Shown piece after piece: positions 7,297 to 42,842 of a stretch of 64,000 bases of DNA (positions within the stretch are counted from its first letter, which is position 1; each line of letters opens with the position of its first letter). Position numbers and translations under genes: made by a program. The DNA is from Octopus vulgaris. Its lineage: Eukaryota. Below the pieces are notes generated by a model, which had not been told where the DNA came from, did not search any database, and saw nothing but the letters and a program-made list of their open reading frames with translations. The stretch lies in the NCBI GenBank assembly GCA_951406725.2, contig OX597814.1, forward strand, positions 91,140,001 to 91,204,000, given 5' to 3'.

Positions 7297-8094
7297 TCAG
7301 TCATTTGTAGGACCGTTCATAAGGACTAGTTGAATATCATTTGTGCGTTGTTCAGCAGGACTCACACCAAATTTAAGACAAATATACAAGCACAAAATAG
7401 AACCACCACATACGAACACTCCTATAGATATCGCAATGGTAGCTGGAAGGTTGCGAGTGTTAGATGGAGTAAGCCTGGAAGATATTGGATAATCTCTAGT
7501 TGTAGTGCTTTCATTTCCCGATGTTAAAGTTGTCTGCATAGGCATTGAGCGAGCATTCGCAGAAACGTATTCAGTAATTGGATATTTTTTCAAAATCTGT
7601 GAATTCAGGACTGATCGCTTCAAAATCTTCGTCTCTCGTTTCAATTTATAATCCGCTACATATTGTGCCATACCAAAATTCTCCTCGAATCTTCGTAGTG
7701 AGTTCTGATTATTCTTATATCGACGGTTAGAAATAATTACGGGTGCCCCCTTTTTTAATTTCTGTGGAGTGATAATGGAAGTATACGGTGGTGTACTGGT
7801 AACCAATATGCAGAGGATACTTCTTTTAGAAATACACCTCAAATATGAGTCTCTTAAATCGGCAAACATGCATCTCCTCAAACAATTCTGCTTCAGATTA
7901 ATATGGATATCGCGATACTGAGGTCCTCTATAATTTAAGTCTTCAACTGTAGATTGATTTTTTCTCGAGGAAAGTATTCTAAATTGTCTGCCATAAACAC
8001 CTATTTCGGAGGTATTTAGTTCTGGAGATATTTTCAAAACGTTGCACACCACAAGTAAATATTGAGCGAAAAGGACGAAAGCAAACATTCTCAT
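7297..8094 (-). CDS. Single-exon predicted type-I membrane glycoprotein (265 aa), paralog A
   Basis: Uninterrupted ORF with hydrophobic N-terminus, KILKRS basic site, S/T-rich stalk, TM (IAISIGVFVCGGSILCLYICL) and short tail. Clear colinear similarity to 26771-27373. Confidence 0.75.
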   Translation of the reverse strand: MRMFAFVLFAQYLLVVCNVLKISPELNTSEIGVYGRQFRILSSRKNQSTVEDLNYRGPQYRDIHINLKQNCLRRCMFADLRDSYLRCISKRSILCILVTSTPPYTSIITPQKLKKGAPVIISNRRYKNNQNSLRRFEENFGMAQYVADYKLKRETKILKRSVLNSQILKKYPITEYVSANARSMPMQTTLTSGNESTTTRDYPISSRLTPSNTRNLPATIAISIGVFVCGGSILCLYICLKFGVSPAEQRTNDIQLVLMNGPTND

Positions 8095-8814
8095 AGCGTG
8101 AAATATGTTGGGGAAACCTTTCTCTTCGAACCATAAATCAATTTCTATAAGCTAATTAATAGACAGATGAGTGATTATATAAATTTTCCATTTCCAATTT
8201 AAATAATTGAACATTCGAAACATTTGTATATGAAATAATAGAATTGATCTTTTGCCAAAATGTGAAACAAATATGAAATAATAGAATTGTCCAATAACAA
8301 TTCTAGTAACACAAAAACCAAGATATGTTGACAATATGTAATGACTGAGGAACGATGCATTTATGTACAAATTAAACGGCATATTCGCCACGGTTTCGAC
8401 TCCTAATTTAAATTATTTAATTTCATTTATGAGAACAATTTTATTTCGGAACTGAAGTTCTGAGCATATGCCTGTTAAAAGAAAGACAGTTAAGGTACAT
8501 CAGAATGCATTATATTTCCCTTTACTAAAAAATTAATGGGTTTAGTCACACTTCAAATACCATTAACCCATTCATATAGCTTATTTGGTAATAAGCTCTA
8601 CAAAAGAAAAGAAAAACTGTAGGTTAATGAATCCCAGTGCCGATCGTATATATTGATATAACTAAGCATTTTCAAATAGCTATTTGTATACCCTAATCTG
8701 AATGATGTAGTTGTTCCCTTTTTTTCTTTATAACTGATTGTTTAGTTGAGAGCAGCGTAAAGCACTATATTATGCCAAACAACATGTGATAAACAATGAG
8801 AAAATAACCCATTG

Positions 8815-9594
8815 AGATCTTTACCTTTTGACCGACAGATGGAAAAAATAATTTTTTGTAACCAAACACTTTCAAACTTCGGACACTGGTAGAATGTGTC
8901 ATATAAAACATCTTTTACTCGTAGCGTTTTAGAGAAAAGGTTATATTTAGGAAGTCACTTCATGTTAAAGTTGTCGTATTTCGGTAATTTCAACCAATTA
9001 ATGACGTGTCTTCAGCTGAAGAAAATTACTGCCGTTGTTTGTCAACAACAACTATAGGCAGTGTATGTTTCGCTTGACACTGTTATTCATGACATCGTTC
9101 ATGCGTTTGTGCTGGTTTTAGCATTTAGGGGTTAGGGTTAGGCTTTTAGGGTTAGTGTTAGGCTTTTAGGGTTAGGGTTTGAGGCTTAGGGTCTTAGGGA
9201 TAGTATTTTAGGGTTAGGGTTTTAGGGTTAAGGTTAGGGTTTTAGTGTTTGGGTTTTAGGGTTAGGGTTTTAGGGTTAGGGTTAAGGTGTTAGGGTTAGG
9301 GTTTTAGGGTTGTTATAAAAAGCAGTAACAAACGTAATATACATCGCCGGAAGCTTTTGTTGACAAACAACAGCAGTAATGTCGTATATTCAAGTGAATA
9401 CACGATATTAATTGGTTGAAATTACCAAAATACGACAACTTTAACATGAAATAACTTCCTAAATATAAACCTTTCTCAAAAACGCTAAGAATAAAAGATG
9501 TTTTATATGACACAGTCTACCAGTGTCGGAAGTTTGAAATTGTTTAGTAACAAAAAATTATTTTAAAAATCTGTCGGTCAAAAGGTAAACAACC
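8815..9594. mobile_element. Long-TIR non-autonomous DNA transposon (Merlin-like MITE/foldback) with a central telomere-like array
   Basis: Inverted arms of about 270 bp (GATCTTTACCTTTTGACCGACAGA / TCTGTCGGTCAAAAGGTAAA). 8-bp TSD ACCCATTG at 8807-8814 and 9595-9602. Confidence 0.85.
9115..9312 (+). repeat. Interstitial degenerate (TTAGGG/TTTTAGGG)n array
   Basis: Directly visible TTAGGG and TTTTAGGG units between the two TIR arms. Confidence 0.9.
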
Positions 9595-10356
9595 ACCCAT
9601 TGCTTCTCAGAAGTGTATATATATATATATATATATATGAGACGAGAAACAGAAATACGTTCACGTCACACACATGATGCTTATCTAAAATATATACATA
9701 TATATTGCGATGTATTATGAATTGGATTGTCTTCTCAAACAGAAGACGAGGAGTCCCGCATTGCTTAAGATCTAAAAGCAAAGATCAAGCCTAATACCTC
9801 AAACAGTTTCAGGATATCAGCTGATCCAAACTTTGTGAACACTGAAACAGTGCTGTCAGGATTGATTCTTTCATACATAAACGGATGCAGGATGTGATGG
9901 ATATGCTTACTCAACGACTATAACGGAAAGTACTCATCTCATCTAGTGTACTCTTTGTATATATACATATACTCCACTTATTCATATGGTAAATACTATA
10001 TATTGACTTGACATTTAGCCTACCTATACAGCGACGGAGAAGACATAACTAATGTAACTTTGTTACAAAGTGAAACTAGACAAGTACTATGATCTCGCTC
10101 GCTGTAGGATTGTTATCTCTCCTGTCAGTGCATTGACATGTGCTTCTTTGAGGCCTTAAAAGCTTTCGACTTTTAATTTTAGCAATGTAGGTGCTCCCCA
10201 GCAACATCAGTCACAATTAGTGACCATTGAACTTTTATTATATAGTTTTACATTGCTTGTAACCGCCTTTGTTATTTTATCACTCTCTCACTCTCTCTCT
10301 CTCTCTCTCTCTGTATATATGTATATATGTATATATATGTGTGTGTGCATATATGC

Positions 10357-10421
<65 letters not shown>

Positions 10422-10699
10422 GAGGTGTATATATGTATATATACGACATTAGATGATGATATTTTGAATGCAAGCATTGAAGAAAACTCAGTTAATGCAT
10501 CAGAGAAGTTGCAGAGAAATTGGAATTTCCCCAAGGTATTGTTCACGGACACTTTGTGGACATTGGGTATGTTTCACTTCATGACATTTGGGTGCCTCAC
10601 AAACTGTCAGAACAAAACTGCATGGACTGGTTTTCTCTCTGATATAGAAACACAATGAAAATAAAATTTACTTGAAACAAATGGTATCTGAAGATGAAA

Positions 10700-11260: not shown

Positions 11261-11366
11261 ATTGAAGTATGTTTTAAAATGTATTATGTATTGCTTTTAA
11301 AGAAAGCGTTAAGACCTTTTGGGTCAAACTCACATATATGTATGCATGTATATATGTCTTTGGGGG

Positions 11367-11417
<51 letters not shown>

Positions 11418-14059: not shown

Positions 14060-15832
14060 ATGTATATTGTTGTGATTATAAATATCGCGGTAAATGCCAG
14101 TAGCAATCCAAAAACCTTCTTTGCCCATGTCCAGCGGAATTCCCGCTTGAACAACCAGATTGCAACGTTGGTAGACTCAACAGGCGTATCGATTGAGGAC
14201 CCTTATCAACAGAGTCAATTAATTGCCGAGGCCTTTTCAACTATTTTCAAACGAGATGATGGTCGTGAACCCCCTCCATTTGATAGATCGGTACCTCCAA
14301 TGCTCCGATTGGTCATCACGCGGGACGAAGTCAAACGTGTTATTCAAGGCCTCGATGTCAACAAGGGTCACGGCCCTGACGGCATACACCCACGGGTTAT
14401 CAAAGCGTTGGCTCCGGTCATCTGCGAGCCCTTAACACGACTATTCAATATGTCATTGGCGACGGGTGTTATACCTGCAGACAGGAGAACAGCGATAATC
14501 TGCCCAATTTTAAAGAAAGGGAGCCGCGAAGACCCGCTTAACTACCGACCGGTTTCCCTTACATCAATAATCAGCAAGATGTTCGAAACCATCCTTAAGA
14601 AAAGTATGATGCTCCACCTCCTAAACACAGCCTCTATCTCTGATTCCCAACACGGCTTCGTGCCGAAGAGATCATGCTTGACCAACTTACTAGTAATGGA
14701 AGAATTGGTGACGCGCATCCTCGATGATAGTGATGCTGTTGACATCGTTTTATTGGACTTTGCCAAAGCTTTTGACTCGGTAAACCACCGCCTATTACTT
14801 GTCAAGCTTCAAGCATATAGTTTCCATCCGGATATTATACGATGGGTTGGTGCCTTCCTCTCAGATCGCTCCTTCCAAGTCCAAGTTAATGGTTCGCGGT
14901 CCGACGTCTCCAGTGCGAGCAGTGGCGTGCCTCAAGGTTCAGTGCTTGGGCCCTTGTTGTTCTTAGTCTTCATAAATGACTTGCCCGACGACCTCACGCA
15001 ACACACCCTTCTATTTGCCGACGATATCAAACTGGTCGCTCCCCGCGGTAATATAGAGGATCTTCGTCGATGCCTCCACCAACTTTGGAAGTGGTCTAAC
15101 GATTGGGACCTGTGTCTGAACGTGTCAAAGTGCTGTCATCTGCCTGTCGGCTCTACTCCTGCAACTCAACTTGATTTCGAGCCGGGTCGTCTGCTGCTGG
15201 AGAGGACCGATCAGGTAAAGGACCTGGGTATCTTGGTGGATTCCTCCTTTTCGCCTTCGGCCCAGTGCGTCCATGCTGCCAACAAAGCACGTGGAACTCT
15301 GTTCTTGATTCGACGGTCATTCGGAATGCTCACAGCAGCCATATTCCTACCATTCTATGTCACGCTGGTGAGACCCATATTGGAGTATGGGATTCAAGCC
15401 TCTTCTCCTTATCTCCTCAAAGACATACAGCATCTCGAAAGAGTCCAGAAGCTGGCTACCCGCATGGTTCATGGTCTCAAAAATTTGTCCTACGAAGAAA
15501 GGCTGAGGACGCTCGACCTTTATTCTCTTGAAAAATGCCGCCGCCGTGGTGATCTCATTCTCGCCCACAACATCATAAGCGGAAAGTGTAACCTCTCGAA
15601 AGAGCTGTTCTTCACTCCTGCTCCAGAGCGTCGGCTGCGGGGTCATTCCGAAAAGCTCTACCTGCGACGATTTCATCTCAATCGAAGGAGAGGAGCTTTC
15701 TCCGTCCGGGTTGCGGATCCGTGGAACAAGCTGCCAGACGAGATGGTGAAGATGCCGACGACCGCTTTGTCCAAAGCCTCCCTGGACTTCAAGTGGCCTG
15801 AACTCTTTACAGGAACACCACCCTGTACTTAA
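14060..15832 (+). CDS. Reverse transcriptase ORF2 (5'-truncated) of a CR1-clade LINE
   Basis: GPDGIHP, NYRPVSLTS, QHGF, LDFAKAFDSV, SGVPQGSVLGPLLF, LFADD, KDLGI, and the CR1-type C-terminus RGHSEKL...FSVRVADPWNKLP. Open for 590 codons; the ATG is probably in flanking DNA. Confidence 0.95.
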   Translation: MYIVVIINIAVNASSNPKTFFAHVQRNSRLNNQIATLVDSTGVSIEDPYQQSQLIAEAFSTIFKRDDGREPPPFDRSVPPMLRLVITRDEVKRVIQGLDVNKGHGPDGIHPRVIKALAPVICEPLTRLFNMSLATGVIPADRRTAIICPILKKGSREDPLNYRPVSLTSIISKMFETILKKSMMLHLLNTASISDSQHGFVPKRSCLTNLLVMEELVTRILDDSDAVDIVLLDFAKAFDSVNHRLLLVKLQAYSFHPDIIRWVGAFLSDRSFQVQVNGSRSDVSSASSGVPQGSVLGPLLFLVFINDLPDDLTQHTLLFADDIKLVAPRGNIEDLRRCLHQLWKWSNDWDLCLNVSKCCHLPVGSTPATQLDFEPGRLLLERTDQVKDLGILVDSSFSPSAQCVHAANKARGTLFLIRRSFGMLTAAIFLPFYVTLVRPILEYGIQASSPYLLKDIQHLERVQKLATRMVHGLKNLSYEERLRTLDLYSLEKCRRRGDLILAHNIISGKCNLSKELFFTPAPERRLRGHSEKLYLRRFHLNRRRGAFSVRVADPWNKLPDEMVKMPTTALSKASLDFKWPELFTGTPPCT

Positions 15833-22800: not shown

Positions 22801-24507
22801 CGGCCTCCCAAAGAGATGGTTGTGTCCACCCTCTCGAAAAAGCATTAACCCATAAAGCGAAGCTGATAATCTTGTTCGATCATTCGTCGAGGTTTCAAAG
22901 GAGCATGACATTTTATCAATACTCCAGTTAAGCTTCCACAGAGTCGAAAACGAACTCCATGTGTCGATGCAATTCTAAATAGGGAACCAGATTTACTCTT
23001 CATTTTACAAACTGGAGAAAAGTGTTTTGCATTCCAGCATTGAAGTAAATTTTTAATAAAGCAACAGTGAACGAGGTAAATAGCATTAAAAATGATTGAG
23101 GTATTTTCTTTATTGATATTCAAAATTCAAAGATACATAAGAAATACATTCATTAACTCCTCTCCTCCATAGTGTTACAAATGATATTGATGAATAGGAG
23201 GAACTACTTTTATGTAAGAATTGTAGTTTAGCAAATTTACTCTTGAAATAAAGGTTTCAATTACTTAGTATATGCACTAATAATGTATCTAATCACTTTA
23301 AATGCTTATTTCCATGACTTTCAAGTGACCTAAAAAAATATCCAGCACTATCAACGCTAGAATTTGAGTATCTAATTAGTTCTTTATATTCTGGTACTTC
23401 TCACGCGAGGAAAGAAAATGGATTGCATTCTCGCATGTAAAAAGGAAATGTAAGTGTATTCTGCAAATTTTGAAGACTAAATTTAGAAATTCAAGTTTGA
23501 AAAAAAAATTTAAACAACGGATGCGGCACATGAGAATCTTCGCACGGACTGACAAAGTAGATTTCGGGCTTACACTTTCACCCTCAATGTCATGTGTACA
23601 GTGCGAAAGCAAATCCATTTCATATAGATGGCCTACTTACTGGCAGAAAAAAAAATTCATCGAAATAAAATTCTATAAAATGAGTTGTTCCGATTGAAAT
23701 CCAGACATTGCTTGAACAAAAAGGAATGCCTATCTGCCTTGAACAGCATGGTTTACTAACCGTTGACAGTTTATCAGGTAGAGTGTTGATGCTCTGAAGA
23801 GCAGAAGTAAAATATTTTACAATCCTTTTTAGCATTCACTGACAATTTGAAACCCTCTTTTTCTTTGAAGAAAGAGATGCATAAGCGCTTTCAATCAATT
23901 TTCAGTTTAGTCATATTTAGTGAGAGTTTAACCTATTTCTGCTTTACTCTGTAAACAAAGAATATTTAAGATATTCTGTCTATTAAAATAAGCAGTACGT
24001 ACTTGCTAAATGGTTTCCCACGTCCCGTTTAGCTTCTTTTAACCCTATTTGGACACCCTGGTGGATTGATCGGCCATGTGATACAAGCTGAAAGGACTAT
24101 TACACTTCAGGACGATAGATCGTCCTTCAGTTGATGTATCTCAATAGAAAAGAAATTGATATTTGGGGATACACATCAAAACACGGTGTCTCAAAAGGGT
24201 CAATATATTAAAAGTATTAAAATCAAATGTAGTATTAGAAAAACTTGAACCTAATGCAATATAGAAATTTTTTTTGTTGGAGGTAGAGGAGTGTACACAA
24301 ATAAGTTTGCTTGTACAATTGACAGTCAACTGATTTAAACTGCCGACTTTTCTTCCGTGGAGAAAAGTTGCAATATTTAAGACCTTTTCTGCATTGTAGT
24401 AAAAATATAAAGTAACAATTGGGTATATCTAATCTACACAAACTACGGATTTTAGCAAACAAAGAAAAATTATCAAAAGAAAAAAAAATTAGCAAACAAA
24501 AGAAAAA

Positions 24508-25258: not shown

Positions 25259-25259
25259 G

Positions 25260-26770: not shown

Positions 26771-27373
26771 TCATATGCCGCTCAAAGGTGGTCGTATAGT
26801 GGCTAGCTCCATCGCATTGTTGCGTAGTTCTGGATAATAGACCGCTGGATTCTTCAAACGTATGTATACACAATAAATGCATATGGAGAATATAACTATT
26901 CCCAAACATACTGCAAGGATACCTACAATGTAGGAATGATTAGCTTTGGTATGAGGATTATTGGTAGTTGTCGGGTAATCAGCAGCAGTTGTAGTAGTTC
27001 CAATTTGTGAAGTAAAATTGGTGGGATCAGACATGGTGGAATCATTTGGAGAAACACGTTCAATTGCTGGAGAATTTGTCACATTCGTTGAATTCAAAAT
27101 CGACCGCTTGAAAATCCTCGCCTCTCCTTTCGGTATATCATATTTCATATCCGGGGTAAAGTTCGGCTTACACAATACAGTGTTATTATCAAAAGAGTAG
27201 TATTCGTCTCCTTTGCATTTCAAGTTTCCAACCGTTAGATTTTTCAACTCGTGACGAATTTTCAGCGGCTCGCCATAAACAGCTACATTAGAATTATTAA
27301 ATTCTGGATATAATATCGCGAAAGCGAGAACCACAAATAAGCGTTGAAACATAGTAAAAGCGAAGGAAGCCAT
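26771..27373 (-). CDS. Single-exon predicted type-I membrane glycoprotein (200 aa), paralog B
   Basis: Signal-like MASFAFTMFQRLFVVLAFA, about nine NxS/T sequons, RIFKRS site, T-rich stalk, TM (IVGILAVCLGIVIFSICIYCVYI), and a tail with YPEL. Confidence 0.8.
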   Translation of the reverse strand: MASFAFTMFQRLFVVLAFAILYPEFNNSNVAVYGEPLKIRHELKNLTVGNLKCKGDEYYSFDNNTVLCKPNFTPDMKYDIPKGEARIFKRSILNSTNVTNSPAIERVSPNDSTMSDPTNFTSQIGTTTTAADYPTTTNNPHTKANHSYIVGILAVCLGIVIFSICIYCVYIRLKNPAVYYPELRNNAMELATIRPPLSGI

Positions 27374-27779
27374 TGCGTGTTAATTATTTCGACAGTGTGT
27401 AAACCCGTACGCTGAATGAAAAATATACTGCGCTTTTTTGACAGTTACCACTTGTATTTCATATATATATATACAGGTGTGTTTTGGTCTATGCCACTTT
27501 TAAAAGAAATTGCGTTTGCAGTACATCCTTTGAAAAGTAGGCTGTCCTTACATATAAAATAATAGAACTTACTTTTTATTTTCGTTAGTATTATAATAAT
27601 ATATTTTTCGATATGTCGCAACTTACGAACAAAACAATTACATTCATATCAAACGGTTCCTTGAAGCCGGTTTCGAATCTCTAATTATCTCATTTCTTTT
27701 CTCTCTTATTGTATGGGGAAAGATCCTTAATATTCCGATGCATGACAGTGCTACATAATTGAGAGAAATATACCTGGCT

Positions 27780-29300
27780 CCTTTTTATTATCGGCATGAA
27801 GCCTTAAATATAGAGGGGACACTACATGGACAGACAACACAAACGGGGGTACATATAACGATTAACGAAGATTTATGAGGTGTGAAAAAATAATGATAAT
27901 GAAATGGCTTTCTTCCCACCAAAGTAGAAAGTTGCATTTTACAGTTTTTACTGTTCAGTTTATATTTATTTGTTTTACTGTTCAGTTTGTATCTTTTTTT
28001 TTTTAATATATCAGAAAACGTGTGACATCTTAAAAAGCCATCAACGGTGGTAATTCGTCGAATTGAACCCGCAATGGTGTTTTCTCCGTCCCATCTCCGA
28101 ACATCTCTTTCAGTCCGGCTGCCCCTTCATCATCCAAAAATACAGTTTTCATGCTTCCATTCACCCCTCCATCTGCCAGTTTCCCACCTACAACGCCTTT
28201 CAGTCCTGCCATCCGCTCCTCAACATCTACGCCCCTCCCACGTTTCACCAACATCCCATCGTGCCCTCCTTCAACTCTCTATGACATTATTGCTGGTGTT
28301 TCCATCAGATCTTTCAGCTCCTTTGGTCCCTTCACCTCCTCACCCGCTGACGGCTCCAGCTGTTGCATTTGCTCTCTTGCTGCTTCATCCCGTCTGCCTC
28401 CCCCTTTCTGCATTTCCGCTCCTTTTCGGTGGAGATTCACCACCTCCCCTCCTCTCGACCCCAGAACACTCTATTTCCTCCTCCGCCACTTCATTCACTC
28501 TTTCCGGGATCTCCCACTTCATCACCTCCCGTTCGTGTTTTTGGGGACACCCCGCCACTACGCCCCCCACTCCACATTAGAAGCCTATTGGTGGTCCACC
28601 CTCCACCACGACTCAAAGTCTGGACTCATCGGGCAGGACCATATCCTCATCACCTTGTGGAGGTCAGGGAGGCCGACAAGTACCATCACCTTGAGGCCAA
28701 ACCCCACCAGTACACCTCCGCTGTCCTTGACACTTTCATCGTCTCCACCCTCTCAACCGCATTGTAGAGGATGGCCGCCACAAGACTGTCTTCGTCTATC
28801 TCTGGTGACACTCTCCCCACTCTCACTCCGAACGCACGTCCTCCACAGCAAGTAGGGAAGAGTGCCCACCGTGCCGATCGCAAGGCTACGGTGGAGCATT
28901 TCCTTGCTTCGCTCTCACCAAAGAAGTGCACCTCCACCGTGCCGAACTTTCGTCCTCTATTACAGAATGTAATTACTTCTTTTACGTCCTTCAAACACCC
29001 CTCTATGCCATTTCCACCCTCCTTGTCGCTATATTTAACGTTCTGTACGTAATCATTTTTCCTTCCGTTTTCTCTGTTATTTCTTTATGGGGTGTCATCT
29101 TCATTTCTTCTTCAACAAGGTATTGAATTTCTGATAGTCTATATCCTTCACTTCCAGTACTTGTATCTGCAGTAGCTCAGCTTTCAGGCTTCTGCCCGTC
29201 ACTGCCGTAGAACTGCCTGTTTAGACCTGCATAATTCCGTTATTCACCGCCTCACCCACAACTGGGGAAGCCAAATATAACTTTTAACAAATTCAAAACC
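27780..29300 (-). mobile_element. Tx1/L1-clade ORF1-only (HAL1-like) retroelement, degenerate
   Basis: VEVHFFGESEARKCSTVALRSARWALFPTCCGGRAFGVRVGRVSPE aligns with the ORF at 40444. The 3' UTR ATGTACCCC...GTCCCCT...AATAAA follows without an ORF2. Confidence 0.7.
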
Positions 29301-29502
29301 AGAAAATCAAACATATTATTTAACAAGTCAAGAAACAACAGGTTTACATTAACCGGTTAAGAATTACGTTTCAAATCACTCCAAAAAACGACGACGTCGA
29401 AATAAGACTGTCAACACCCCAAATGAACAAGACTGCCACTAATATTATACCTGACTACTCATGAATAAATAACGTTACTGACTTCTTAAACACTGTCCTC
29501 TT

Positions 29503-30676
29503 TTATTCATTAAATTGGCCATAGAGACCTTACAAAGAAAGGAAGCTTCTGGCTAGACAAGGGGATGATGAGATGAAATGATAGACGATATAATAATGAG
29601 AGCAACAGCAACGCCCGCCGATTGCTGTTTACCCCAAGCACATTCTTCCTTATAAGTATCATATTTGAGGCTCAAAACCTCTTACATAGTTCAAACTAAA
29701 ACATCACTGATGCAATAAACCCCTTACATTTACAAGAAAGCCATTATGAGTCAGTAAACCTCTTACACAAGTCAATTATAAAATCAATAAAACAATACAA
29801 ATGAGGCACCAAGCCTCTTTCATTAATTACAAATCTTCGTGCCCGACTAGACTTCTCACCTTGGTCAAACACCTGGCCGGTATAAAGTCGTGCCGCTTTA
29901 ATAGAAAATTAAAAGTGTCCGCTGGGAAGGAGTTCAATATCCTGCACTGTTTCCCATATGACCTCCGCCGCCACATACGAAGGCCAGTCAGGGTCCTGTG
30001 TGCCCTTCCTTTTATACCTCTTAATGAAGTGTTCTATTGTTCCTCCCTTAAGGGAACAAAGACCACAAACTCCTCCTCCACAGCATGGGAGGGATCTACA
30101 GTTTCCACCTTTGGTGGCACGACTCCCACGGTAGGTACTTCGGGACACGCTGGCAATGTCCCGTTCTTCTTATTTTTCATTTTTTCTCTGAGCCACGGGA
30201 GGGTGGCTTTCCTCCGGTTTGTCCAGCAAATCCTTCCTTTCTCTCGCAGCCTTCGGACTTCCGGTGGGCAACCATTGCTGCCCACCTTTCGTTTTTTCCT
30301 TTTTCCGATGAGGTTTCCACCTCCTCGACTTCATCCTTCTCTCCCTCCAATGAGGGAAGAGGGAGCCGTATCTTTACCAACTGCTCCAGGGCCTTATTGT
30401 GGTCATTACGGCAGTTCTTTTTGATATGGCCAGGTTCCAGGCACAGGTGACACTTGGGTGGGGGTGCTCCCTCGAGCATCAGCGGATACTTAGACCCGGC
30501 CATTCTTAAAACATTTGGAAATACCAGATTTTCGTCTAATTGGGTTCATAGAGTCAAAACAGCTTCTGACCCCTTCCAATTAACCGCAGGCAGAATGTTT
30601 ACGTTTAGGAGCTTGGTACTGCTGCCACTCAGACCCGGTGGATACTATACTCAGACCCTGGCGGATAGCATCATCG
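29503..30676 (-). mobile_element. 5'-truncated ORF1-type retroelement with zinc knuckle and 15-bp TSD
   Basis: CHLCLEPGHIKKNC (CX2CX4HX4C). TSD AAACACTGTCCTCTT at 29488-29502 and 30677-30691. Confidence 0.75.
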
Positions 30677-30942
30677 AAACACTGTCCTCTTAATAGATAA
30701 CGTTACTGTTCTCTTAACTGTTTTCCTAAACAGAAATTGCGTTTGCAGTACGTCCTTTGGAAAGTAGGCTGTGCTTACATATAAGATAATAGAATTGACC
30801 TCCATTTTCGTTAGTATCTATACTATAATGGAGAAAGCTGCTTATTAATTAGGTATGAACAATTACTTAAAGTACTAAGAGACAAGTAATTATTAAAGGA
30901 TTGACCGTCTGGAAATATGGTTATAAATTCATGCTCTAAGAA

Positions 30943-31695
30943 GTTTATTTCTTTATTGCCCACAAGGGGCCAACGAAGAGGGGACAGCACAGCTTGATTT
31001 GGGGTCAGATACCAAAAAATGGAGTTAGAAATTTACAATGAAATCGAGTGATATAATCGAATGATAGACAATTGACAAAACATGGTAACAAACACAATGA
31101 GGCAGGGGAACAGGTTTTCGCTTCGACCCCACCAGCACTGTTTCACCACCGACATCTTTTTATATGACCTTTGTCATATTCACGAGGTCTCTTTCACACA
31201 CAACATTCGTGCTACACCTGCCCACATGTCTTTGTACATTTTCTCCGACAGAATTATCTATTCTCTATTTGTATAATTTGCTCTCCCCTTATATGAATAG
31301 CACTGTAGAGATGACTTTCGAAGATGAAAGCGTGAATCTGAAATCTACTATGCTGTCAGATTGTGCGAAGATTCTGATTAGTAACTTTCATTGTTTTCAC
31401 ATTTTTAAAACATGAATTTCCTTTTTAGGGGAAAAGTGAAAAAGCCCACATAAATCGAAGCCAGAGATGAAGTTGCCTGTCACCAATTCTTTCACTCTCG
31501 ACTTCCATATCACCTCTTTCGCGATTGCTACTATCACAAGAGAACAGTTTTTACCTTCTTTCGTTAGGAAATCGGGTGGATCAATTTTTAGAATCGACTC
31601 AGCCGATAGTTGTACTCTTCTTGTATCTAACAACAGATTTTCTGCATAAACCCACACTTCTGACACTTGCGGACGCTGAACAATAGAGTGTAGGA
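30943..31695 (-). mobile_element. Tx1-like LINE 3' fragment (ORF2 C-terminus plus tail)
   Basis: EVWVYAE...VAIAKEVIWKSR resembles the Tx1 C-terminus. Tail ...CCCCTTGTGGGCAATAAAGAAAT. Confidence 0.7.
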
Positions 31696-32042
31696 CGTAT
31701 ATATATATATATATATATACGTATATTTCTTTACATGTATTTTTATAGTTTATACTTTTATGTTTACGATTATACCGTAATGACTATTAAATATAAGGAC
31801 TACTATAGCAAGCCCAATTCGCGGATACAAGGAACAAAAATCAATGTGATTGTGAGAACTCTATTAATCTAATGGGGCACCAATTTATGTATGTTTGTGC
31901 CTGATGTGTCTCAAACTCCGCTGATGGATGCAACATGATTGGAGGCACAACATTCCAGCCATAAATGACAATCGCAGGTAGGGTGGAAACGATAGTTGTA
32001 CTGAAATAATGACTAACGCCAAATCTGCTTCATTCATAGAAT

Positions 32043-32043
<1 letters not shown>

Positions 32044-32107
<64 letters not shown>

Positions 32108-32119
32108 AAGAAGAATATC

Positions 32120-32166
<47 letters not shown>
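32044..32166. repeat. Compound microsatellite (AAT)n(AAG)n(TTA)n
   Basis: Directly visible. Confidence 0.95.
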
Positions 32167-32169
<3 letters not shown>

Positions 32170-32199
32170 AGAATAATGGAAAATAGATGGAGACAAACG

Positions 32200-32760
32200 C
32201 TTAAGATATTATTTAAATCATTTATTTCACCATATCACCGTATATGTTTCGATTGATGCATTAAAATAAATCCGAGAGGAAGAGTAATGTGAGAAAATGC
32301 ATCAATCCTATCAGCGAGGAGATTAATAACAGTGCTCATCAATAATCCATTTTTACAGATGTAAGAGACTATGTTATATAATGTATATGCAAAAACAAAG
32401 TTGGATAGGGAACGTTAGAAATATTTTAAAATGCCGTTAAGAAATTTGATGTCATAGGACGAGAGCAGAAGAGAAGGAAGTGAAAAAGAGTATTAAAGGA
32501 GTAATGGATAGAAAGATGAAGAAACGAATAGGAAGTATGGGATGAAAAGAATAAATTTTAAGTTGCAGGTATAATTAGGTAAGGGGCCAGATATTATTTG
32601 AAATAGCTGAAAGTTGTGTTTACCAATGTAAACACTTGTAGACACATTCTTTATAGGTGTTGGCCAGTGTACGTTTGGAAAAAGGGATAAATAGATGTTT
32701 GTCCTTACAAAAAGGGCAGAAAGATTTCCCCATCATTTTGAAATCAATCAACATTGGAAC
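32200..32760 (-). mobile_element. Penelope-like remnant (VYIG motif plus hammerhead-like 3' motif)
   Basis: SVYIGK near 32620 (minus). Downstream CTGATAG, a perfect 12-bp stem, then GAAACATAT at 32314-32241. Confidence 0.5.
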
Positions 32761-33267
32761 TAATGTGTTTCATATTTTATTATTGTAACTGTGGTCACTT
32801 AAGAATCACTTCGTCAAACCTCAAAATGTAATGTTTATATCTACAAGCATGCTAATATGTTTATGATAACTGAACCAAGAATGACTTCAGGAAGTTGACC
32901 ACATCGATGCAGCATAATTGAAAAGAAGCTTTTTCTCTCTCTCTGTATTCCCTTTTTTCTTTCTTCTTTCTTGTCTTTCTCATCCTTCTTCCTAAACTTG
33001 TAATCTTGAACGGTTATTTAGCAACCGCCATCTGTTAGCCAACAGAGACATGCTTTCTTATACTTTCTATTCTCTCCCTTTCCTTCTTCATTCTCTACTT
33101 CTAAACAAACAAAATTACATATACTCACACACACACACACAAACACACGCACACGCATACACATGTATTTTTCCCAGTCCTAAAGTGTATATTTTCAAAT
33201 ATGTTAATGAGAGAAGAGCAGGGAGAGAGAAAGAGATGCTTTCGAAAACAGTGACTCAACCAAGAAT

Positions 33268-33540
33268 TGATTTTTATTTGTCCACAAGAGATTAAGACAG
33301 AGGGGGCAGCACAAGGGGTCGGGGTGAATCGCCCACAAATGATGAAACATTTAAAAATTTATGATATATAATTCAATCGAAAGATTAATATGAAGTGATG
33401 GACACGTATGACCCCCACAGACCACATTCCACAAGTGAACCTTTTAAAGAACCTTTATGTCCTCCTTTAAGATGTCATATCCACTCTCAACATGTATGTC
33501 ACTTTCTTCCATCTTTTCGCATATAAAGCCACATAAATTG
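33268..33540 (-). mobile_element. Tx1-like LINE 3' tail fragment
   Basis: TTTTATTTGTCCACAAG..AGAGGGGGCAGCACA resembles the tail at 30945-30990. Confidence 0.5.
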
Positions 33541-33768
33541 TCAAACATGGCAAAAAGTACGCGAAGTCAATTTTGCTTTGGATAATTGATAGCATTCAAA
33601 TTAGAAAAATAACAAAAATATGCTTGGTAGCTTATAAATCACATATTTATTAACGAATCTAAACGAAATAAAACAGTTCGAAAGATTACATGAGGGAGGG
33701 AGGGATGCTACAGAGTGTGATATATAAAGTCGGTTAGTTTTGACTCTAATATACATACATACATACAT

Positions 33769-33805
<37 letters not shown>

Positions 33806-36477
33806 TATACGTATGTATGTTTGATTGTGTGTGTGTGGTGTGTGTTTATTGAATGCTTGAAGTGGTTTACAGATATTGTATATTAAGAAAAAGGAGGTAG
33901 AAGTTTGAATAAAGAACTCTTCCAGATAATGAACAGAAAGTTTCTTCGTCTTTTATATAAATTGAAAAGCGGATGTTGTTTGGCATTGTTTAGGAGAAGA
34001 GAAATTTCGATTTTGGAGACAAGAGAAAAAGAGGTAGATAGAAAGAAGGACAAACAAGAAAGAGAAAGAAAGGTGAAGAGGAGAGAAAGAGAGAAAATGG
34101 TTTGTTTACAATTATATTTTATCGATCTAGTCAACCAATTAAAATTTAATTACAATTCAAGATGTCATTCTTGGTTCAGCCATATTTCTCCCGGGTAGGT
34201 AATGCCGGTGGCGAGGGATCCAACTCGTCATTCTATAGAGGATTAGTAGAGACCAAGTGTGACGGTGTTCTGGGTGAAACACAGGGCTCTGGCGATGATC
34301 AGACGGCTAAGTCTGTTTTGATTAGTCAAATACATAATAAGATATTTGGGTTTAATTAATACTACCAATGTTCTTCTCAGTCAATTAGACATGACCTGTA
34401 ACATGTCCTTAATTTTTATACAATGCCTTTAATAATTGTTATGCCTATATTTTTATACGTTTTGTTGTTTACATGCGTTACGAGCAAGAACATTTGCGGT
34501 CATTATCTTAAATATTAGAGATAAACATGCTTGCTGTTACTTGTTAGATATGTTCCAAACGCTTGACATACGTTCAAAATTCCTATCAGTTTCTTAAAGT
34601 GTATAACGTCTTTCACTTTGGCGAAATATCGAAGAGTGCACAGTCGGCAGATAATTCATATGCTGATAAATACAATGAGTACAAAATTAGATTCAATTAT
34701 TTAATAGCCACAATCGTATCAAATGAACAATAACGTAAAGCTAACATAAAACTTATTGAAACACTTTAATTGATTTTACATCGATTTGAAACTAACGATA
34801 AATAAACATTGCAACATGGGGTATTATTGATTCGTAATCGATTTGCAATTAAAAATAAACATTTCCACTCTGGGATTTCATTGATCCTTAGAGAATTTCA
34901 TCGAAATCACATTAGAACTATATATACTGAAATGAATTCAGAGAATTGAAAATGTTAATAGTTTTAAATTACCTTTAAATGTAAAACTGTACTCGAATTA
35001 GATAATTACATAGAATTGTTACGCGTCAGAGAAATTCGTTTTAATGTTAGAAAATCATAGCCGTTAGTTTAGCATAATGCAATGCATATGATTCCCGTTA
35101 TATGAAGGATTATTATTAATACCTCTATACCAACGGATATTACGTAAACTGAATTAAACTTGATAATTATTGCAATGACAGATTCAAAGGTTTCCAATTT
35201 ACCTTTCTAAACATTTTCATGTATGTGCTTTAGAATATATTTCACCGGTATTCTATATGATATAGTGTTTAAAATTACAAACATCGATCCTGAAACGGTA
35301 TCATGTAATTGTTTTCGATCCTTCACTCCAAATATAGATTAAAAGTTGTTGTGCTAATAATTAACTATTTCATCAAATACCAACTTGAGCTTGCTACTCC
35401 AGAAATCAACTGAAATGATATTCTAAAATAAAATGGCGAATTAAACAAATGTGCTTTTATTCAAACTTAAATCCAACGTACAAAGATGCATGGACTGTCA
35501 AAAAGATTACTAAAATTTAACACGTGACAGAAATATCTTTGTCCCTCTAAAATGTAACTTGTAGATTTAATTCTTATCAACAAGAATATACAATTACGAC
35601 ATACACATTCATCATTTCGAGTATTGTACAGAAACTACCATAACTACTAATTTTATAGCTTATAGTATGAAGTTAACGCATCTTATAACATGAAAATACC
35701 TATTTTCCAGGTTCTTATCAGAATCAAAAGCACCTGGCTACAATTTTAATCCCTTGCGTATTGTAGAATAATCTCATAAGTATATATGATGAAGCATTGT
35801 ATTTCTGTTCCACGTTTAGAATATATTGAATAAATATCTATCTTACTCAAACTAACACACTTGATATGATAATTGCTTTGCGCAGATTCAGAATAATTGC
35901 GAAACACAACTGGGTGATCACTCTATCCGATATTATAAATGAGACAATTTGAGAACCGTTCCTTCTAAATCTATTAAAGCGAATGTAGTAGAATCTAGCT
36001 CTGAGAGTTAAAGTAATCATTTTCAAATTGTAACCACAGCTCTGGAGTGCTTGTCCCAATTAGAACGCTGGTCATTATTATTGTGATGTTGGCCGCGGAC
36101 GTAATTCTATTTTAGTGAGTGACACTGATCATAGATATACAAACTACGAACACATTCGACTATCCCAGCAAAGCACCGCTAGTGAAATATAATTCAGTAG
36201 CATCTGATGAAATTTACAAACTAAAATCAGATAGTAATGACGTTGTGCACAAGTTTTGAGGGAATATAGCAATAGGAACCTTAATTTATGATATTGGTTG
36301 ATCTGGAAACAATTTTTATTATTGGTCATTTGATGACCCGATCTGTGTATTTATTAAAAACATATTAGGTGTGTGACTCTGGATAACTGTCAGTACGATC
36401 GCACGAGCAAGTATCGACCAGCTTTCGCGCGACGGATCCCCCGCGAGTCCGCCCTATCAACTGTTTTATACATACAC

Positions 36478-36513
<36 letters not shown>

Positions 36514-37819
36514 ATTTAAATCGCAGGATAATGACTTCATCAACGAGGAAATACAACTGATTTTTGAGAGGATTATGTATCATGTGTTATTAGTTATTTT
36601 AAATTTATGTTTGATTTCGAACTCATTCCAACATAATGATGTGAAGAAAAATTCTAGAGGTAAATGTGATTAACAGGTTCTACGTTTCTTAAAAAAACCC
36701 GAAAAGGTCTAACTTTTGCTCTGATGTTATTAATCGAAAGCACAAAAAATAGGATATCAACTTATTTGCAAATTACACATTCGTATGAGTATTCTATGTG
36801 AGGTAATGTTACCTCTTATCAGAGTGCGTTTAACACTGTAACGAAAAAGAAAACCAGTCAAATCAGAAAATTAGATTTATGTACGCTAGAATTTGATCCA
36901 TGTAAATTGATTCTAGATTTCAAATATAACACAGGATTAAAATAACAAGATAAAGAATAATTTCACCGAACGAAAAAAAGAAAGTGACTTTCAAAGGAAT
37001 TAATAAATTTGTTTACATTGAATAGAAACCAACAAATTCATTTTCGAAATACAGTTGATCTTTTGTTATTTTTCTATAATTCAGATGTATACTGTGTAAA
37101 TCTAGCTACATAACCTATAATTACGATTTGGTCTCACTATTTTAACTCTCAGTATAAAAATAATGAAACGCAATCCATTGCATATTTTTGTTGGATTATT
37201 CGGATTCTGCAAGATGAGGTACCAACAGAATCATTAGTCCATTAAACAAAATTTTGAGTAAAATTTCTTCCTGCTCTTTACTTTCTGAGTTCAAATACTA
37301 CCGACATCATATTTGTATTTCATTCTTTCGGGATCCATAAAAAAAAAATACTGTTGATGGGTGTAATCAAGTTGTCCCTCCCCGCAGAATATCTGGTCTT
37401 GCGCCAAAATGAGAAACAATTAATTGCATAATGCATGCAATGTATATTTTGCATGTAACACACAAACACAGTGTCAGCGAAGAACCAATACATATAAACA
37501 TATATTTGGTAAGAAAATTTAAGAAAATGTAAATCAAATAGTTGAAGAAATACTTGGTTAATTCCTGTAGTTTTAGCAACACGCTATGTATCAATACATA
37601 TAATACATATTCTAACAATTATAATAAGCAATTGGTTGTACTTTCGAATATGTATTCTTTCCCTGAATACCATTTGGATAAATATGTTGAAATATATTGT
37701 AAATGATTCATTGCTATTTCATTGTTACTTCGTAATCCTGATGCGTATACTTTGTAACAAAGTGTACGAAATCCGAAATCTCATTGTTTATCTTTCAATT
37801 ATCTCATTATCTGCACTCT

Positions 37820-38120
37820 GTCCATGCTGAGGCACGGCCCTGAAGGGTTTCAGAGAACAAATTGAAAGCAGTACAGCACGTTGTAAGTCTCGAGTTTAGA
37901 CTAATAATCTACGTTTACAAACCGCTATATTATTCAAACTAAGCAAACCAACATCGGTTGTCAAACGGTGTATGGGACAAACACAAAGACACACACAATC
38001 ATACAAACACACACACACACGCACATGACAGGCGTCTTTCATTTTCCGCAAAGTGGGACCGGACCTAAGATCACATGTTTAGAAAATCGCCTTCTGAGCT
38101 ACGCAGCTCCGCTTGCGCTG
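37820..38120 (-). mobile_element. Degenerate SINE (family of 38349 and 48920)
   Basis: CATCGGTTGTCAA..GGGACAAACACA..(CA)n..GTGGGACCGGACC. Confidence 0.6.
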
Positions 38121-38314
38121 ATGTTTTTCATGTAAGTTCTAACTACAAAATGTTGCTATCGTTTACACAGAAAATACTATGGAGAAACGTCGAAGAATCA
38201 AAGGGCAAAAGCATACTCCAGAAGCCCTTAACTGTTTCGTATATTCACCTCCCACACATATGCGTGTGTGTATGTATGTGCACCTGTATATATATATATA
38301 TATACACACACACC

Positions 38315-38348
<34 letters not shown>

Positions 38349-38349
<1 letters not shown>

Positions 38350-38547
38350 TTTACTTGTTTCCAGTCATTTGACTGCGGCCATGCTGCAGCACCACCTTTA
38401 GTCGAGCAAATCGACCCCGGGACTTATTCTTTGTAAGCCCAGTACTTATTCTATCGGTCTCTTTTGACGAACCGCTAAGTGACGGGTACGTAAACACACC
38501 AGCATCGGTTGTCAAGCAATGCTAGGGGGACAAACACAGACACACAA

Positions 38548-38570
<23 letters not shown>
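38349..38570 (-). mobile_element. SINE 3' half (abundant family with an internal CA/TA microsatellite)
   Basis: TTTTACTTGTTTCCAGTCATTTGACTGCGGCCATGCTG...GAACCGCTAAGT...CATCGGTTGTCAAGC, shared with 48920 and 54750. Confidence 0.8.
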
Positions 38571-38637
<67 letters not shown>

Positions 38638-39334
38638 GTGTAAATGTATCATAAGTCACTTGTGAGATATTTCATGAGTGCTACTTGTAACTGCTGCATG
38701 GTCGTGTCGTCGGCGACTAAATCGGCAGCCACACGAAGCTTGCACGCTGAAGACGGTTGTAAAAACCTAGCAGGATTCAAACCAAGACCTGTGAAAAGAA
38801 TGCAAGAAGCAAGTGAAGCCTCCACAACGATCTATTAATACCAGGGCTATCAGAAATTCCAGATTGGTGCCTGTCGTTCTGGTAGACCACAGGGAGCGAG
38901 ACACTCCTCAGCTTTTGCTATAACCTGCGTCAGGAAACATATCACTTAGATATCTATCCGGATGTGAGGCAATGGCATTGGGGATTTTAGGGATCTTTTC
39001 TTGGTACTCCCATATATCTGAATCTGAGATTCTTGTATGTTGGCACTGGATATCTTTCCGTAGCTTATCTCTGGAACACACCAATAGCGTAGAGAAGGTC
39101 TGTGGTGTTTTGCAAGCCTCATTTAACGTAAAATATTAGGTTGCAGGATTGCTAGTGAGGTGACTTCTCAATAACCAATAGGGGCGGAGGGCGGCACTAC
39201 ATGGATGGAAACTGTGGGCGCGGCCCTAGGTTAAGCGGACCGCAGGTACAATAAACTTGAGCGTGGACATAGATGATATCTTTACATAGGCCTTGTCCGT
39301 AGTGATCTTCCACGGTCACGAGTAGAGGGCTATC

Positions 39335-39761
39335 GGGTCTTTTCCGTTTGAACGGCAGTTTTTAAAATAATTTCCACGTAACTAAACACTTTTAAACTTC
39401 ATATACTGGTAGAATGTGTTTATAAAACATCTACATCTTTTTCTCTCGGCTTTATTGAGAAAATTCCATAGTTTGTAAGATATTTGTTGTTTTTTTTCTT
39501 CAATTTCTGCAATTTCAACCAGTCAATGACGTCTATTGAGTTGAAAATATGTGCCGTATGAATGTGTCCCTCGTTTAAGAAACAGATTGGGTTTATTACA
39601 TTTCTGAAGAAAAAAGGATACCCTTCCCCCCACCCCTAACCTTAACTAACCCTCACCCTATAACAGATTGAAATACAATAGATCGATACTATGGTCATAA
39701 TCATGGGTGACAATTTCATATGACACCGCTAGAAAAACTGCCGTTCAAACCGAAAAGATCC
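39335..39761. mobile_element. Merlin-like MITE (427 bp)
   Basis: TIRs GGGTCTTTTCCGTTTGAACGGCAGTTTTT / AAAAACTGCCGTTCAAACCGAAAAGATCC. Perfect 8-bp TSD GGGCTATC at 39327-39334 and 39762-39769. Internal CCCTAA-like stretch. Confidence 0.9.
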
Positions 39762-40089
39762 GGGCTATCTTGTATCTATATACGTGTATTATTTTCAGCA
39801 GTTGTCAGTTATCTAACCTCCGGAATAAAATATTTATCATACTTATTTGTATGTATTGATAAAACATATCGCCTTCTAGTGTACCTAAACATAAATTAGT
39901 TTTATATTATTAACTAAACTGCACAAATAGAGATGAAGAGTGTAGCTGATCTCAACAGTTGCTGGAGCAGGCCACCGTTGTAGAAGTCAAACTCAGTACA
40001 TATGAAAACTAATTTTCTTTCTCGGCATTGGTAATTACTATCCATAACGTAAATCATCATTGTATACTCAATATATATGCACACCCATG

Positions 40090-41803
40090 CACACACATAC
40101 ACACATATACATACATACAAAGGAGAAGAAAGTAAAACCTTTGAATGTAGACCCCCATCCCACGGCCACCCCACACCCAACTACACCCACTTTTCCCCAT
40201 CCTCTCTCCTACAGACACCAACACCCACTCCCCTCCAACACAAAGAAAAACGCAGGCACGCAAGAGTTCCAAAACCTCCCCTCCCCGGCCGGTGTTAAAA
40301 GAAAATACGGAGTAATATACGACAGATCAAATATAGAACTCTGCAAAGAGATAGACACTTGTGAAGGCGTAATAACAGTTAATATGGCAACTAATACTGG
40401 GATACCATGGCGTTATAATTGTGTGCTGACAACCCAGGATTAAATGTCAAAAATAGTGAATTACAGTGATAACTTTGAATACTGGGGGAAAACAATGGAC
40501 ACCAGTCTGTTGCCAAGATACATAAACTATCTTGATCTCCGAGAGCATTACAAAATTGATATTCTACAGCCAGACAGTGCTAGATCGTACGCTACGGTAG
40601 ACGTGCGCTTCGAAAATGAAGACGAAGCGAAGGGGAACGCAGCGACAGTGTTGAGATCGGAAAGATGGGTTTTGCTCCCTACTTATTGTGGAAGGGGAGC
40701 GGTGAGAATGCGAGTAAGCAGAGTCCCACCGGAGCTTGATACCGAAGGAGTGGTAGGTGCAATGATCTGCAACTGCTGGGAGAGTGTGGACATGCTTAAT
40801 GCGGAGAGGTTGAATGAAATAAGCTGGTGGGGTTATGCGGTACGAGCCTTAGTCCATGTAACCATGCCAGATTTGTAAAACATCCCGGAGGAGTTGGTGT
40901 TCCCCGACGAGACACGACTGAAAGTCGTGGTGGAGCGGAGACCTCCAGTGTGTTATAAATGTAAGAGAAGAGGGCACATGAAGGGGGTGTGTCCTGAAGG
41001 AGAAATACAATATAAGAAGATGACACTGGAGGAAGCAATAAGAGCTTTGACAGAGGATTTAGGAGATAATTTGGAAAGTGACGACGAGTTGGTGAGGAGA
41101 GAGAAGAGGAGAGAACAAAAGAAAGAGAGGATAGAAAGCGAAAACGGGTGGAATCACCACCCAAAGGTAAAAAAAAAGAGAAAAAACTAAAAAGAAGTAT
41201 GCTGACGAGACGGAGGAACGAACGCACGAAGAGAGAGATACAGCAATTAAAGTGAGTGAAGGTTCAAGTTGGGAGGAAGCGATAAAATGGTCAACAAAAG
41301 TGGAAGAATGTATGAAAACATGCAAGGAAGGAGGACGACCCAAAGGAAAGAATCTCAGAGCCGTAATATTGTACACAAAAGATAAAGAAATTGAGAAAAA
41401 GTTAGCAGTAACGAAGAATCTAACCAGAGTGAAATTGAACCCGAGGATGTACGATGACGAAACAAAGGCTGCAATAGTGGAAAAAGAGACGGTAAATAAA
41501 TTAATAAAATTGTTTTCAGATACTGTTGTAACCATAAAGCTTTACGTTCGATATGACAGTTTGCCCGGAGTTATAGAGGAAGATGAATTACTCGTTTACA
41601 TTACGGACGAACACCCCAGATAGTATAACTGTAATATAAATGAAACTGCAAGCTTTGGGCGACTCGTAAGCAATTTCATTAATTCATTGTTAATAATTAA
41701 TTTCATTTCATATCATCCTTTTTTTTTTATTATATGTACCCCATGTCCTGTATTGTATTGTTATGTCCCCGCTTGAGTCAGGCCATTGTGCCTATAATAA
41801 AGA
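40090..41803 (+). mobile_element. Tx1/L1-clade ORF1-only (HAL1-like) retroelement, ORF broken by stops and frameshifts
   Basis: ORF pieces at 40444, 40894 (CYKCKRRGHMKGVC knuckle) and 41252, then 3' UTR ATGTACCCC..GTCCCCGC..AATAAAGAG. No EN/RT. Confidence 0.75.
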
Positions 41804-41879
41804 GAAAAGACAGTGCTGGATCGAATTAAGGTCGTGTAAACAGAATAAAAGAAGTCTCTCTGATGTGGAGTCGAAAAAC

Positions 41880-41990
41880 TTCATTTCATCTTTTCATTTT
41901 CAAATTTTTCTTTCATTCGTTCTTTTTTTTGTCCCCGCATGTTTTGTGTTGTCCCCTCTGTATTTACCCCGTGTGCGAAATAAAGAATTA
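41880..41990 (+). mobile_element. Additional Tx1-like 3' tail
   Basis: TTGTCCCCTCTGTATTTACCCCGTGTGCGAAATAAAGAA. Confidence 0.55.
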
Positions 41991-42016
41991 GATTTATTGC
42001 AGCTGTCTCGTTGGGT

Positions 42017-42842
42017 ATGGACACAGTCTTGCGTACTTCAGCGTTCATTCTATTCCTGCAATGTTCATTAACATATGCCATAATTTTCAATACGACTATC
42101 ATTTCAGAAAGATTTTCCAAGTCTATGAAGTACACGAATTTTAATGCAACAGAAATTTTATCTACAACAGAAGGTGGAACTCGGAACATACCAACTTGTA
42201 AATATTATGATAGAATCGGTTTTAGTAATGTAAATGTTCTAAACTCGGATGTTTCTTCTCATAAACCAGACGGAAACCATTTTATGCCCGAATCTCGTAA
42301 CTTCATGCCCTCAATTAATCCTACTAAAAGTGACGATCTTTATAGTTAGACGATCTTTATAAAAGTTAGACGTTCTTTATACCAGTTTCTATACAGTTAA
42401 AATGCATCACAACGTACTAAACACAACTCCATATACTGTAAGATATTTACCCACGAAAACCTTTCTTCTCAAATCAAGAATATAAAGAAATGCTAACAAA
42501 TCGATGTCCCAGGTTTCCTATACGGCAGTAGTTTCAGTAACAACAATGGAAGAGGCGGATAACGAATTTTTGTTCAGTACATTACGAACTACAACAATTG
42601 TATATAATGACATAACAAATATTGATTCAAGCGTAATACCTACAACCGGACACTCTACAAATATAACATTGTCAACCACTTCTGTCGTCATCGTAGTGGT
42701 TATTCTAACTTGCTTTTTACTGAACGGATGTATCTATCATGTGTCTGTCATTGTGTTAATTACAGAACGACTCGAAGTACTTCAAGTGTGCAGCGCGTAC
42801 AATATTATCCTGCCCTATCAAATGGAAGTGTACATGTATTAA
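42017..42842 (+). pseudogene. Disrupted type-I membrane glycoprotein gene, probable paralog C
   Basis: Signal-like SAFILFLQCSLTYA. A local GACGATCTTTATA triplication shifts the frame. In-frame KSRI*RN (TAA at 42483), T-rich stalk, and TM VVIVVVILTCFLLNGCIY. Confidence 0.65.

Follow-up and report, generated by a model that had tools for sequence, protein, structure and literature searches.

Among membrane glycoproteins with a simple layout, podoplanin is a small mucin-type single-pass protein, and class I viral envelope proteins, including the domesticated env proteins known as syncytins, are characterised by an R-x-K/R-R site, a fusion peptide, a CX6CC motif, a long helical ectodomain and a proviral context. 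In the type I glycoprotein Pmel17, furin or a similar convertase cuts at a dibasic KR that departs from the furin consensus (PMC2172928). In molluscs, the PTC2-type genes of the snail Biomphalaria are defined by very divergent alleles and have 166-530 codons and paralogs less than 50% alike (PMC7494358). The present analysis concerns two related genes, A and B, in a 64,000-nucleotide (nt) window of Octopus vulgaris DNA (G000:C1:91140001-91204000; "the window" is the whole stretch analysed), together with searches of the 2.8 Gb genome. On balance, we lean towards viewing A and B as a fast-evolving tandem pair encoding mucin-stalk type I membrane glycoproteins, from which a single convertase cut at a KR↓S site (the arrow marks the proposed cut) would shed the outer end. 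The window, AT-rich and strewn with simple repeats and pieces of retroelements, contains five open reading frames (ORFs) of at least 200 amino acids (aa), compared with none in each of 30 block shuffles.

The A and B genes and their relatives

The two related genes lie in tandem, 19 kb apart on the same strand (Table 1), and do not form the dispersed family proposed in a preliminary description of this DNA. Genome searches with A, B and a relative from another assembly (P0003, see below) returned only A, B and one 131-nt fragment on contig C4, these copy counts being lower bounds. The A and B proteins are 35% identical and align in two blocks (E = 6e-13 and 1e-8); the full local score of 151 compares with 33.6 ± 5.6 in shuffled sequences (0/1000 as high), and all of the matching motifs quoted in the preliminary description are present. 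Its reports of a shared start context, CACGC(T/A)ATG (CACGCT-ATG and CACGCA-ATG for the pair), and of an extra Cys-containing block in A, which makes that protein 65 aa longer, also hold. An in-frame stop lies two codons upstream of the B start codon. An internal duplication of the KRSIL block in A was considered possible and found not to be significant (61 of 1000 shuffles as high).

Judging from their sequences, A and B likely encode small type I membrane glycoproteins. The order of parts in A is a hydrophobic N-terminus, a four-Cys ectodomain, ILKR↓S, a stalk rich in Ser, Thr and Pro, one transmembrane (TM) segment and a short tail. Both proteins share the hydrophobic N-terminus, presumably a signal peptide, a stalk of 56-57 residues (Ser+Thr content 27-36%), the single hydrophobic segment and the short tail, and A carries three N-glycosylation sequons. 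Hydropathy, composition and structure models fit the predicted signal/stalk/single-TM/short-tail outline of small mucin-type single-pass glycoproteins. The TM segment had been described as Cys-flanked; the Cys residues are instead found inside it and at its inner end, with one Cys column invariant. Tail motifs known from other proteins (TRAF-binding, YxxL and dileucine) are not common to all three of A, B and P0003.

The full-length relative P0003 (194 aa), from a 1,829-nt contig of a public assembly, has 54% identity with B and 30% with A. The features it has in common with them are its start, Cys pair, I-x-K-R-S, D-Y-P, end of the TM segment, tail, overall architecture and length class. The Cys pair predicted to form a single disulfide loop in B is matched in P0003 (Cys51, Cys70), and A is without the first Cys. 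Within the TM segment, 16 of 23 residues of P0003 are identical to B, compared with 6 of 23 for A. A profile of A and B, compared with 1.84 billion representatives, gave three matches: P0003 and two public protein models, P0001 and P0002. Combined with the genome copy count, these matches describe a family that consists of a tandem pair with a narrow range, and that likely is restricted to octopods. Relatives were found neither in viral contigs nor in metagenome contigs; longer or fused forms were not seen among 5,954 candidates, which is weak evidence. No further A/B homolog was detected within 200 kb on each side of the window, a scan run per 10-kb stretch, from which an ORF spanning a boundary could escape.

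Pfam returned no family above the cut-off for A, B, P0003, the open pieces (C1 and C2) of a broken frame called C, or a neighbouring frame, D (both described below). The PDB, searched by sequence, gave a profile match to INO80 (E = 0.0036) and weak matches of A (E ≥ 0.05), which were taken as chance. The nearest entries in the ESM Atlas were TMEM154, glycophorin A and PRIMA1, all small single-pass proteins, with every score below 0.9 and of use as leads only. No paper on these genes was found in the literature searched, including for LOC115219683, although supplements and subscription papers outside that search could hold them. The pair is apparently undescribed; its architecture is of a common kind.

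Transcripts, gene models and selection

B is likely a single-exon gene with an unspliced transcript of about 2 kb. The B stretch is present in 10 of the 24 runs listed, the remaining 14 containing next to none of it, a split that carries no information on expression or tissue; four of the ten were mapped, on positions 26000-40000 only. In two RNA-like runs, X1 and X8, which come from two studies and carry two organism labels, single contigs (2,051 and 1,970 nt) span the whole coding sequence (CDS) of B with no joint and with 3 and 0 letters, respectively, left over at their ends. These contigs end at 27442 (X1) and 27451 (X8), 69 and 78 nt upstream of the B ATG, and extend about 500-600 nt further in the 3' direction, beyond the mapped stretch. 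Since the joint-free contigs end behind a TATA-like run, a candidate core promoter (Table 1), B is likely to consist of one exon. Across six bins between 27868 and 30669, depth is zero in X1 and at most 6.3 in X8 (versus 367 on B); the DNA-like run X10 shows depth in 30 of 30 bins. A possible splice acceptor 38 nt before the B ATG was dropped, as both contigs cross it straight; another possible acceptor lies 57 nt before the A ATG.

In the public gene models, each protein lacks its two ends. P0001, labelled Octopus vulgaris, is the sole protein match of B, and P0002, labelled Octopus sinensis, is the sole match of A, to which it is identical at 149 of 151 residues. Both begin at an inner Met and splice out where the TM segment starts, so that second exons replace the TM segment and tail (Table 1). 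The P0001 model is likely wrong because the contigs cross its donor without a joint. With its ends probably misannotated, the pair is invisible as membrane proteins in databases.

Selection on the pair is weakly purifying. By the Nei-Gojobori method, the ratio of nonsynonymous to synonymous substitution rates (dN/dS) for A versus B comes to 0.65 over 169 well-aligned codon pairs (bootstrap 0.41-0.99; 23 pairs of the gappy middle dropped) and to 0.58 over all 192. When substitutions alone were simulated under neutrality at 60% identity (against a real value of 57%), both frames stayed open in 1 of 2000 runs, in agreement with the initial impression that they have been kept open despite divergence. 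The sole CDS indel seen in B is a 9-nt in-frame insertion at window position 27149, which X4, X8 and X10 carry but X1 and the window lack, and which varies within one organism label. The dN/dS values, the rarity of open frames in the simulation and the in-frame indel together indicate that the frames are kept while the sequence changes fast. Among the differences listed, the B CDS has no substitution in X1, none in X4 and two in X8. Allelic hyperdiversity was not seen, either for B in four of the ten runs that hold it or for A compared with P0002. The 3' flanks of A and B are alike (0 of 100 shuffles as high), as are the 5' flanks (1 of 100), and this weak likeness speaks for DNA duplication rather than retrocopying as the likely origin of the pair, with A gaining its 65 residues afterwards. 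The earlier picture of lineage-restricted, likely intronless and likely selected single-pass glycoprotein genes is upheld by the B contigs without a joint, the three profile matches and the dN/dS values.

Table 1. Positions of the A and B genes, their parts and neighbouring frames (window coordinates except for D)
Feature	Position	Strand	Remarks
Gene A	7297-8094	-	Intact 265-aa ORF
A residues 61-151, holding the 65 extra residues	7642-7914	-	Cys 71, 75, 87 and 95, and five further dibasic pairs
A I157-L-K-R-S161, candidate convertase site	7612-7626	-	From sequence; putative cleavage
A predicted TM segment, about residues 219-241	7372-7440	-	Hydropathy; helix in structure model
Stretch matching the P0002 second exon, which replaces the TM segment and tail of A	4324-4395	-	Sequence match to public model
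Gene B	26771-27373	-	Intact 200-aa ORF, 9 N-glycosylation sequons
B Cys53-Cys68, predicted single disulfide loop	27170-27217	-	Sequence comparison
B I87-F-K-R-S91, candidate convertase site	27101-27115	-	Only dibasic pair of B; putative cleavage
B predicted TM segment, about residues 149-171	26861-26929	-	Hydropathy; model helix, predicted local distance difference test (pLDDT) about 80
B transcript part, likely unspliced	26000-27451	-	Single contigs of two RNA-like runs
TATA-like (TA)n run, candidate core promoter of B	27461-27473	-	10-31 nt upstream of contig ends; putative function
P0001 second exon, replaces the TM segment and tail of B	22848-23012	-	Likely prediction error
C, broken frame	42017-42842	+	Hydrophobic start, Ser/Thr-rich stretch, TM-like segment
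D, 157-aa frame	L023:7842-8315	+	About 42 kb left of the window

The KR site and competing readings

Residues I87, K89, R90 and S91 (B numbering) are invariant across the three family proteins, and the KR-to-TM distances among them are 56, 52 and 57 residues, although the part before KR differs in length by 65. The site had been called furin-like; the furin motif R-x-K/R-R occurs in none of the three proteins, and the site is a dibasic KR↓S. In the proposed mechanism, the A and B chains would enter the secretory route and become glycosylated, and a kexin- or PC (proprotein convertase)-type enzyme would cut after KR late in that route. Cleavage of B would release a glycopeptide some 65-70 residues long that contains one disulfide loop; a Ser/Thr/Pro-rich, mucin-like stalk of 52-57 residues would stay behind, together with the TM helix and about 28 residues of tail. 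For A, the shed piece would be larger, with four Cys and additional dibasic pairs. The rapid change of the sequences is our sole ground for inferring a part in cell-surface recognition on a specialised cell type, a role that would explain such change.

Several points weigh against cleavage and shedding, or against the evidence beneath them. No Arg occupies P4 in any of the three proteins. Shuffling of the alignment columns gives a block with four of five invariant columns 75% of the time, which means that the conservation of KR↓S does not exceed chance. The AlphaFold models are of low confidence (pLDDT 46 for B and 42 for A). At its upper end the dN/dS interval touches 1; both X8 substitutions, F72V and N185D, change the amino acid, and no silent one was seen. 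Regarding transcripts, the RNA-like label is a guess backed by coverage, as none of the 24 listed runs is recorded as RNA; the contig ends are only a weak hint of transcript ends, the contigs do not give the strand, and the contig mapping covers B.

Chance-level conservation of the KR block and the lacking furin consensus speak for a rival in which the proteins are real and uncut, forming a glycophorin- or podoplanin-like coat that acts as a spacer, decoy or adhesion surface, with KR↓S kept by descent or by some other cause. The nine sequons of B, the Ser+Thr content of the stalk and the language-model neighbours (TMEM154, glycophorin A and PRIMA1, as leads) fit such a coat as well. We nevertheless find it somewhat doubtful, given that KR is invariant in 3/3 proteins at 30-54% identity, with an aliphatic P4, Ser at P1' and a fixed distance to the membrane. 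It is far harder to accept that only B works, with A a relaxed duplicate nearing loss, or that the spliced, TM-less public models are the true products. A does lie outside the read-mapped stretch, has lost the first Cys and has the less B-like TM segment, and its O. sinensis model, P0002, is without both ends; yet its 265 codons have stayed open after long divergence (1/2000 neutral runs), and the public model of B truncates an intact frame alike, at a donor that the contigs cross without a joint. As the same truncation affects the intact B, a truncated model is no sign of damage in A, and this reading appears very unlikely.

Two further readings turn on the wider setting. A, B, C and D could belong to a cluster of unrelated single-pass genes for immune recognition whose diversity is maintained by parasites, like the PTC2/GRC clusters of Biomphalaria: three intact signal-plus-TM frames (D, A and B), together with the broken C, fall within about 85 kb, the 464 kb scanned contain no other convincing frame, and the frames have no known domain, paralogs less than 50% alike and sizes of 157-265 aa, resembling PTC2 (PMC7494358). 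The near-identity of alleles makes such a cluster quite unlikely, with 0, 0 and 2 substitutions and one 9-nt indel for B in X1, X4 and X8 (among the differences listed), and 149/151 residues shared between A and the O. sinensis model. Descent of the pair from a captured viral envelope glycoprotein, an origin raised in the preliminary description, we consider extremely improbable. Its outline is matched by the single coding exon, signal peptide, sequons, basic site and one TM segment. A fusion peptide is missing, however, as the 20 residues after KR are hydrophilic in all three proteins (mean hydropathy -0.34, -0.60 and -0.12); there is no CX6CC and no R-x-K/R-R, and only 52-57 residues separate the site from the membrane. 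No direct repeat pair resembling long terminal repeats (LTRs) was found around A or B (window 1-45000), and no relative appeared in viral contigs, in metagenome contigs or among the 1.84 billion representatives beyond the three family matches. A viral-fold search gave a best E of 0.79, obtained with a low-confidence model (pLDDT 46), and speaks neither for nor against this origin.

Neighbouring sequences and known systems

Region C, previously regarded as a family member of the same architecture, has two stops (42347-42349 and 42483-42485) and a tandem repeat of 20-nt period with a frame change (42332-42381). With the breaks read as X, it shows no homology to B (115/1000 shuffles as high) or to A (527/1000); neither open piece contains a dibasic site, and the A/B start context is lacking. 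Of 100 shuffled windows, 17 contain an equally long and similarly broken frame; C therefore cannot be called a gene on length alone, and its sequence would fit either a decayed, unrelated gene or chance. A match of the open piece C2, L004 (E = 0.008), contains three stops and simple repeats and was rejected as chance. Just upstream of C are broken frames (window 40444-41623, plus strand) that we take to resemble remnants of the first ORF of a long interspersed nuclear element (LINE). Frame D starts with a hydrophobic stretch; its outer part is very short, and its single TM segment is followed by a long tail that contains several Tyr. A strong splice acceptor lies 2 nt before its ATG. It is not in the protein collection and is unrelated to A, B and C (124-334 of 500 shuffles as high). 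D and the open pieces C1 and C2 are each present in at least a single copy.

Other features lie among and around these genes. Between A and B is an intact 590-aa reverse-transcriptase frame (window 14060-15832, plus strand; Pfam RVT_1, E = 1e-32), likely of a non-LTR element. An element with inverted arms of 150-200 nt occurs at 8820-9589, 24637-25108 and 39338-39740; its first copy holds internal TTAGGG-like repeats, and copies lie 0.7 kb upstream of A and just beyond the 3' end of B. A zinc-knuckle frame (E = 0.005) is found at 30177-30503 on the minus strand, and long open frames in the flanks (L045:5000-8800 and L017:500-5800) have a retroelement appearance, resembling endonuclease and reverse transcriptase on visual inspection.

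Two pieces of the B transcript sit 1.3 Mb apart on contig C4; two control stretches held no copies. The 131-nt fragment found in the genome searches (L002:1538-1668, G000:C4) corresponds to part of the TM and tail CDS of B at 92% identity and is flanked by two repeat copies of about 190 nt. It differs from B by five silent and six replacement changes, four of the latter agreeing with P0003, and a 56-aa frame would start from an ATG in the repeat. The second piece (L053:935-1691, G000:C4) comprises about 340 nt of the B 3' flank at 89-98% identity, split by an insertion of about 390 nt. Neither has a poly(A) tail, and a count of 2 versus 0 and 0 is thin; the pieces point weakly to expression of B in the germ line. 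A bolder proposal, which we rate as unlikely, is that B-type proteins are membrane-tethered precursors of an octopod recognition or signalling glycopeptide (about 65-70 residues, disulfide-looped) that is set free at KR↓S by germ cells, in which strong expression gave rise to the two inserted transcript pieces, and that B together with A, D and the dead C is the cephalopod counterpart of the polymorphic transmembrane clusters of snails. At the least, the locus adds a fast-evolving, likely octopod-restricted and apparently undescribed pair of surface proteins. If the outer end is indeed shed, it would be a candidate for a new ligand in gamete or immune recognition, two processes that are poorly known in cephalopods.

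Comparison with known systems places the pair as follows. Class I envelopes and syncytins likewise have a single coding exon, signal peptide, glycans, a basic site and one TM segment, but A and B differ from them in lacking the furin consensus, fusion peptide, CX6CC, size and proviral context. Glycophorin A, TMEM154 and PRIMA1 resemble the pair in that a short, Ser/Thr-rich and likely disordered ectodomain is followed by one TM segment and a short tail; these are vertebrate families to which A and B score below 0.9 with no Pfam match, and the Cys loop and KR site are additions of the A/B family. Pmel17/PMEL (PMC2172928) and GPNMB are convertase-cut type I glycoproteins that likewise have an off-consensus dibasic KR dividing a releasable N-terminal part from a membrane stub. 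A and B differ from them in having no homology or Pfam domain in common, in being one third the size and in that cleavage is here only predicted. The PTC2/GRC TM1 clusters of Biomphalaria (PMC7494358) are likewise of a mollusc and consist of clustered, single-pass, domain-less, lineage-restricted genes of similar size with paralogs less than 50% alike. A (265 aa) and B (200 aa) fall within their size range and layout, and D (157 aa) is slightly below it. The octopus pair differs in its lack of a sequence match (only three matches among the 1.84 billion representatives, all of them family members), in near-identical alleles and in having only two homologous members. In layout, the snail PTC2 cluster may be regarded as the nearest mollusc analogue of the A/B locus.

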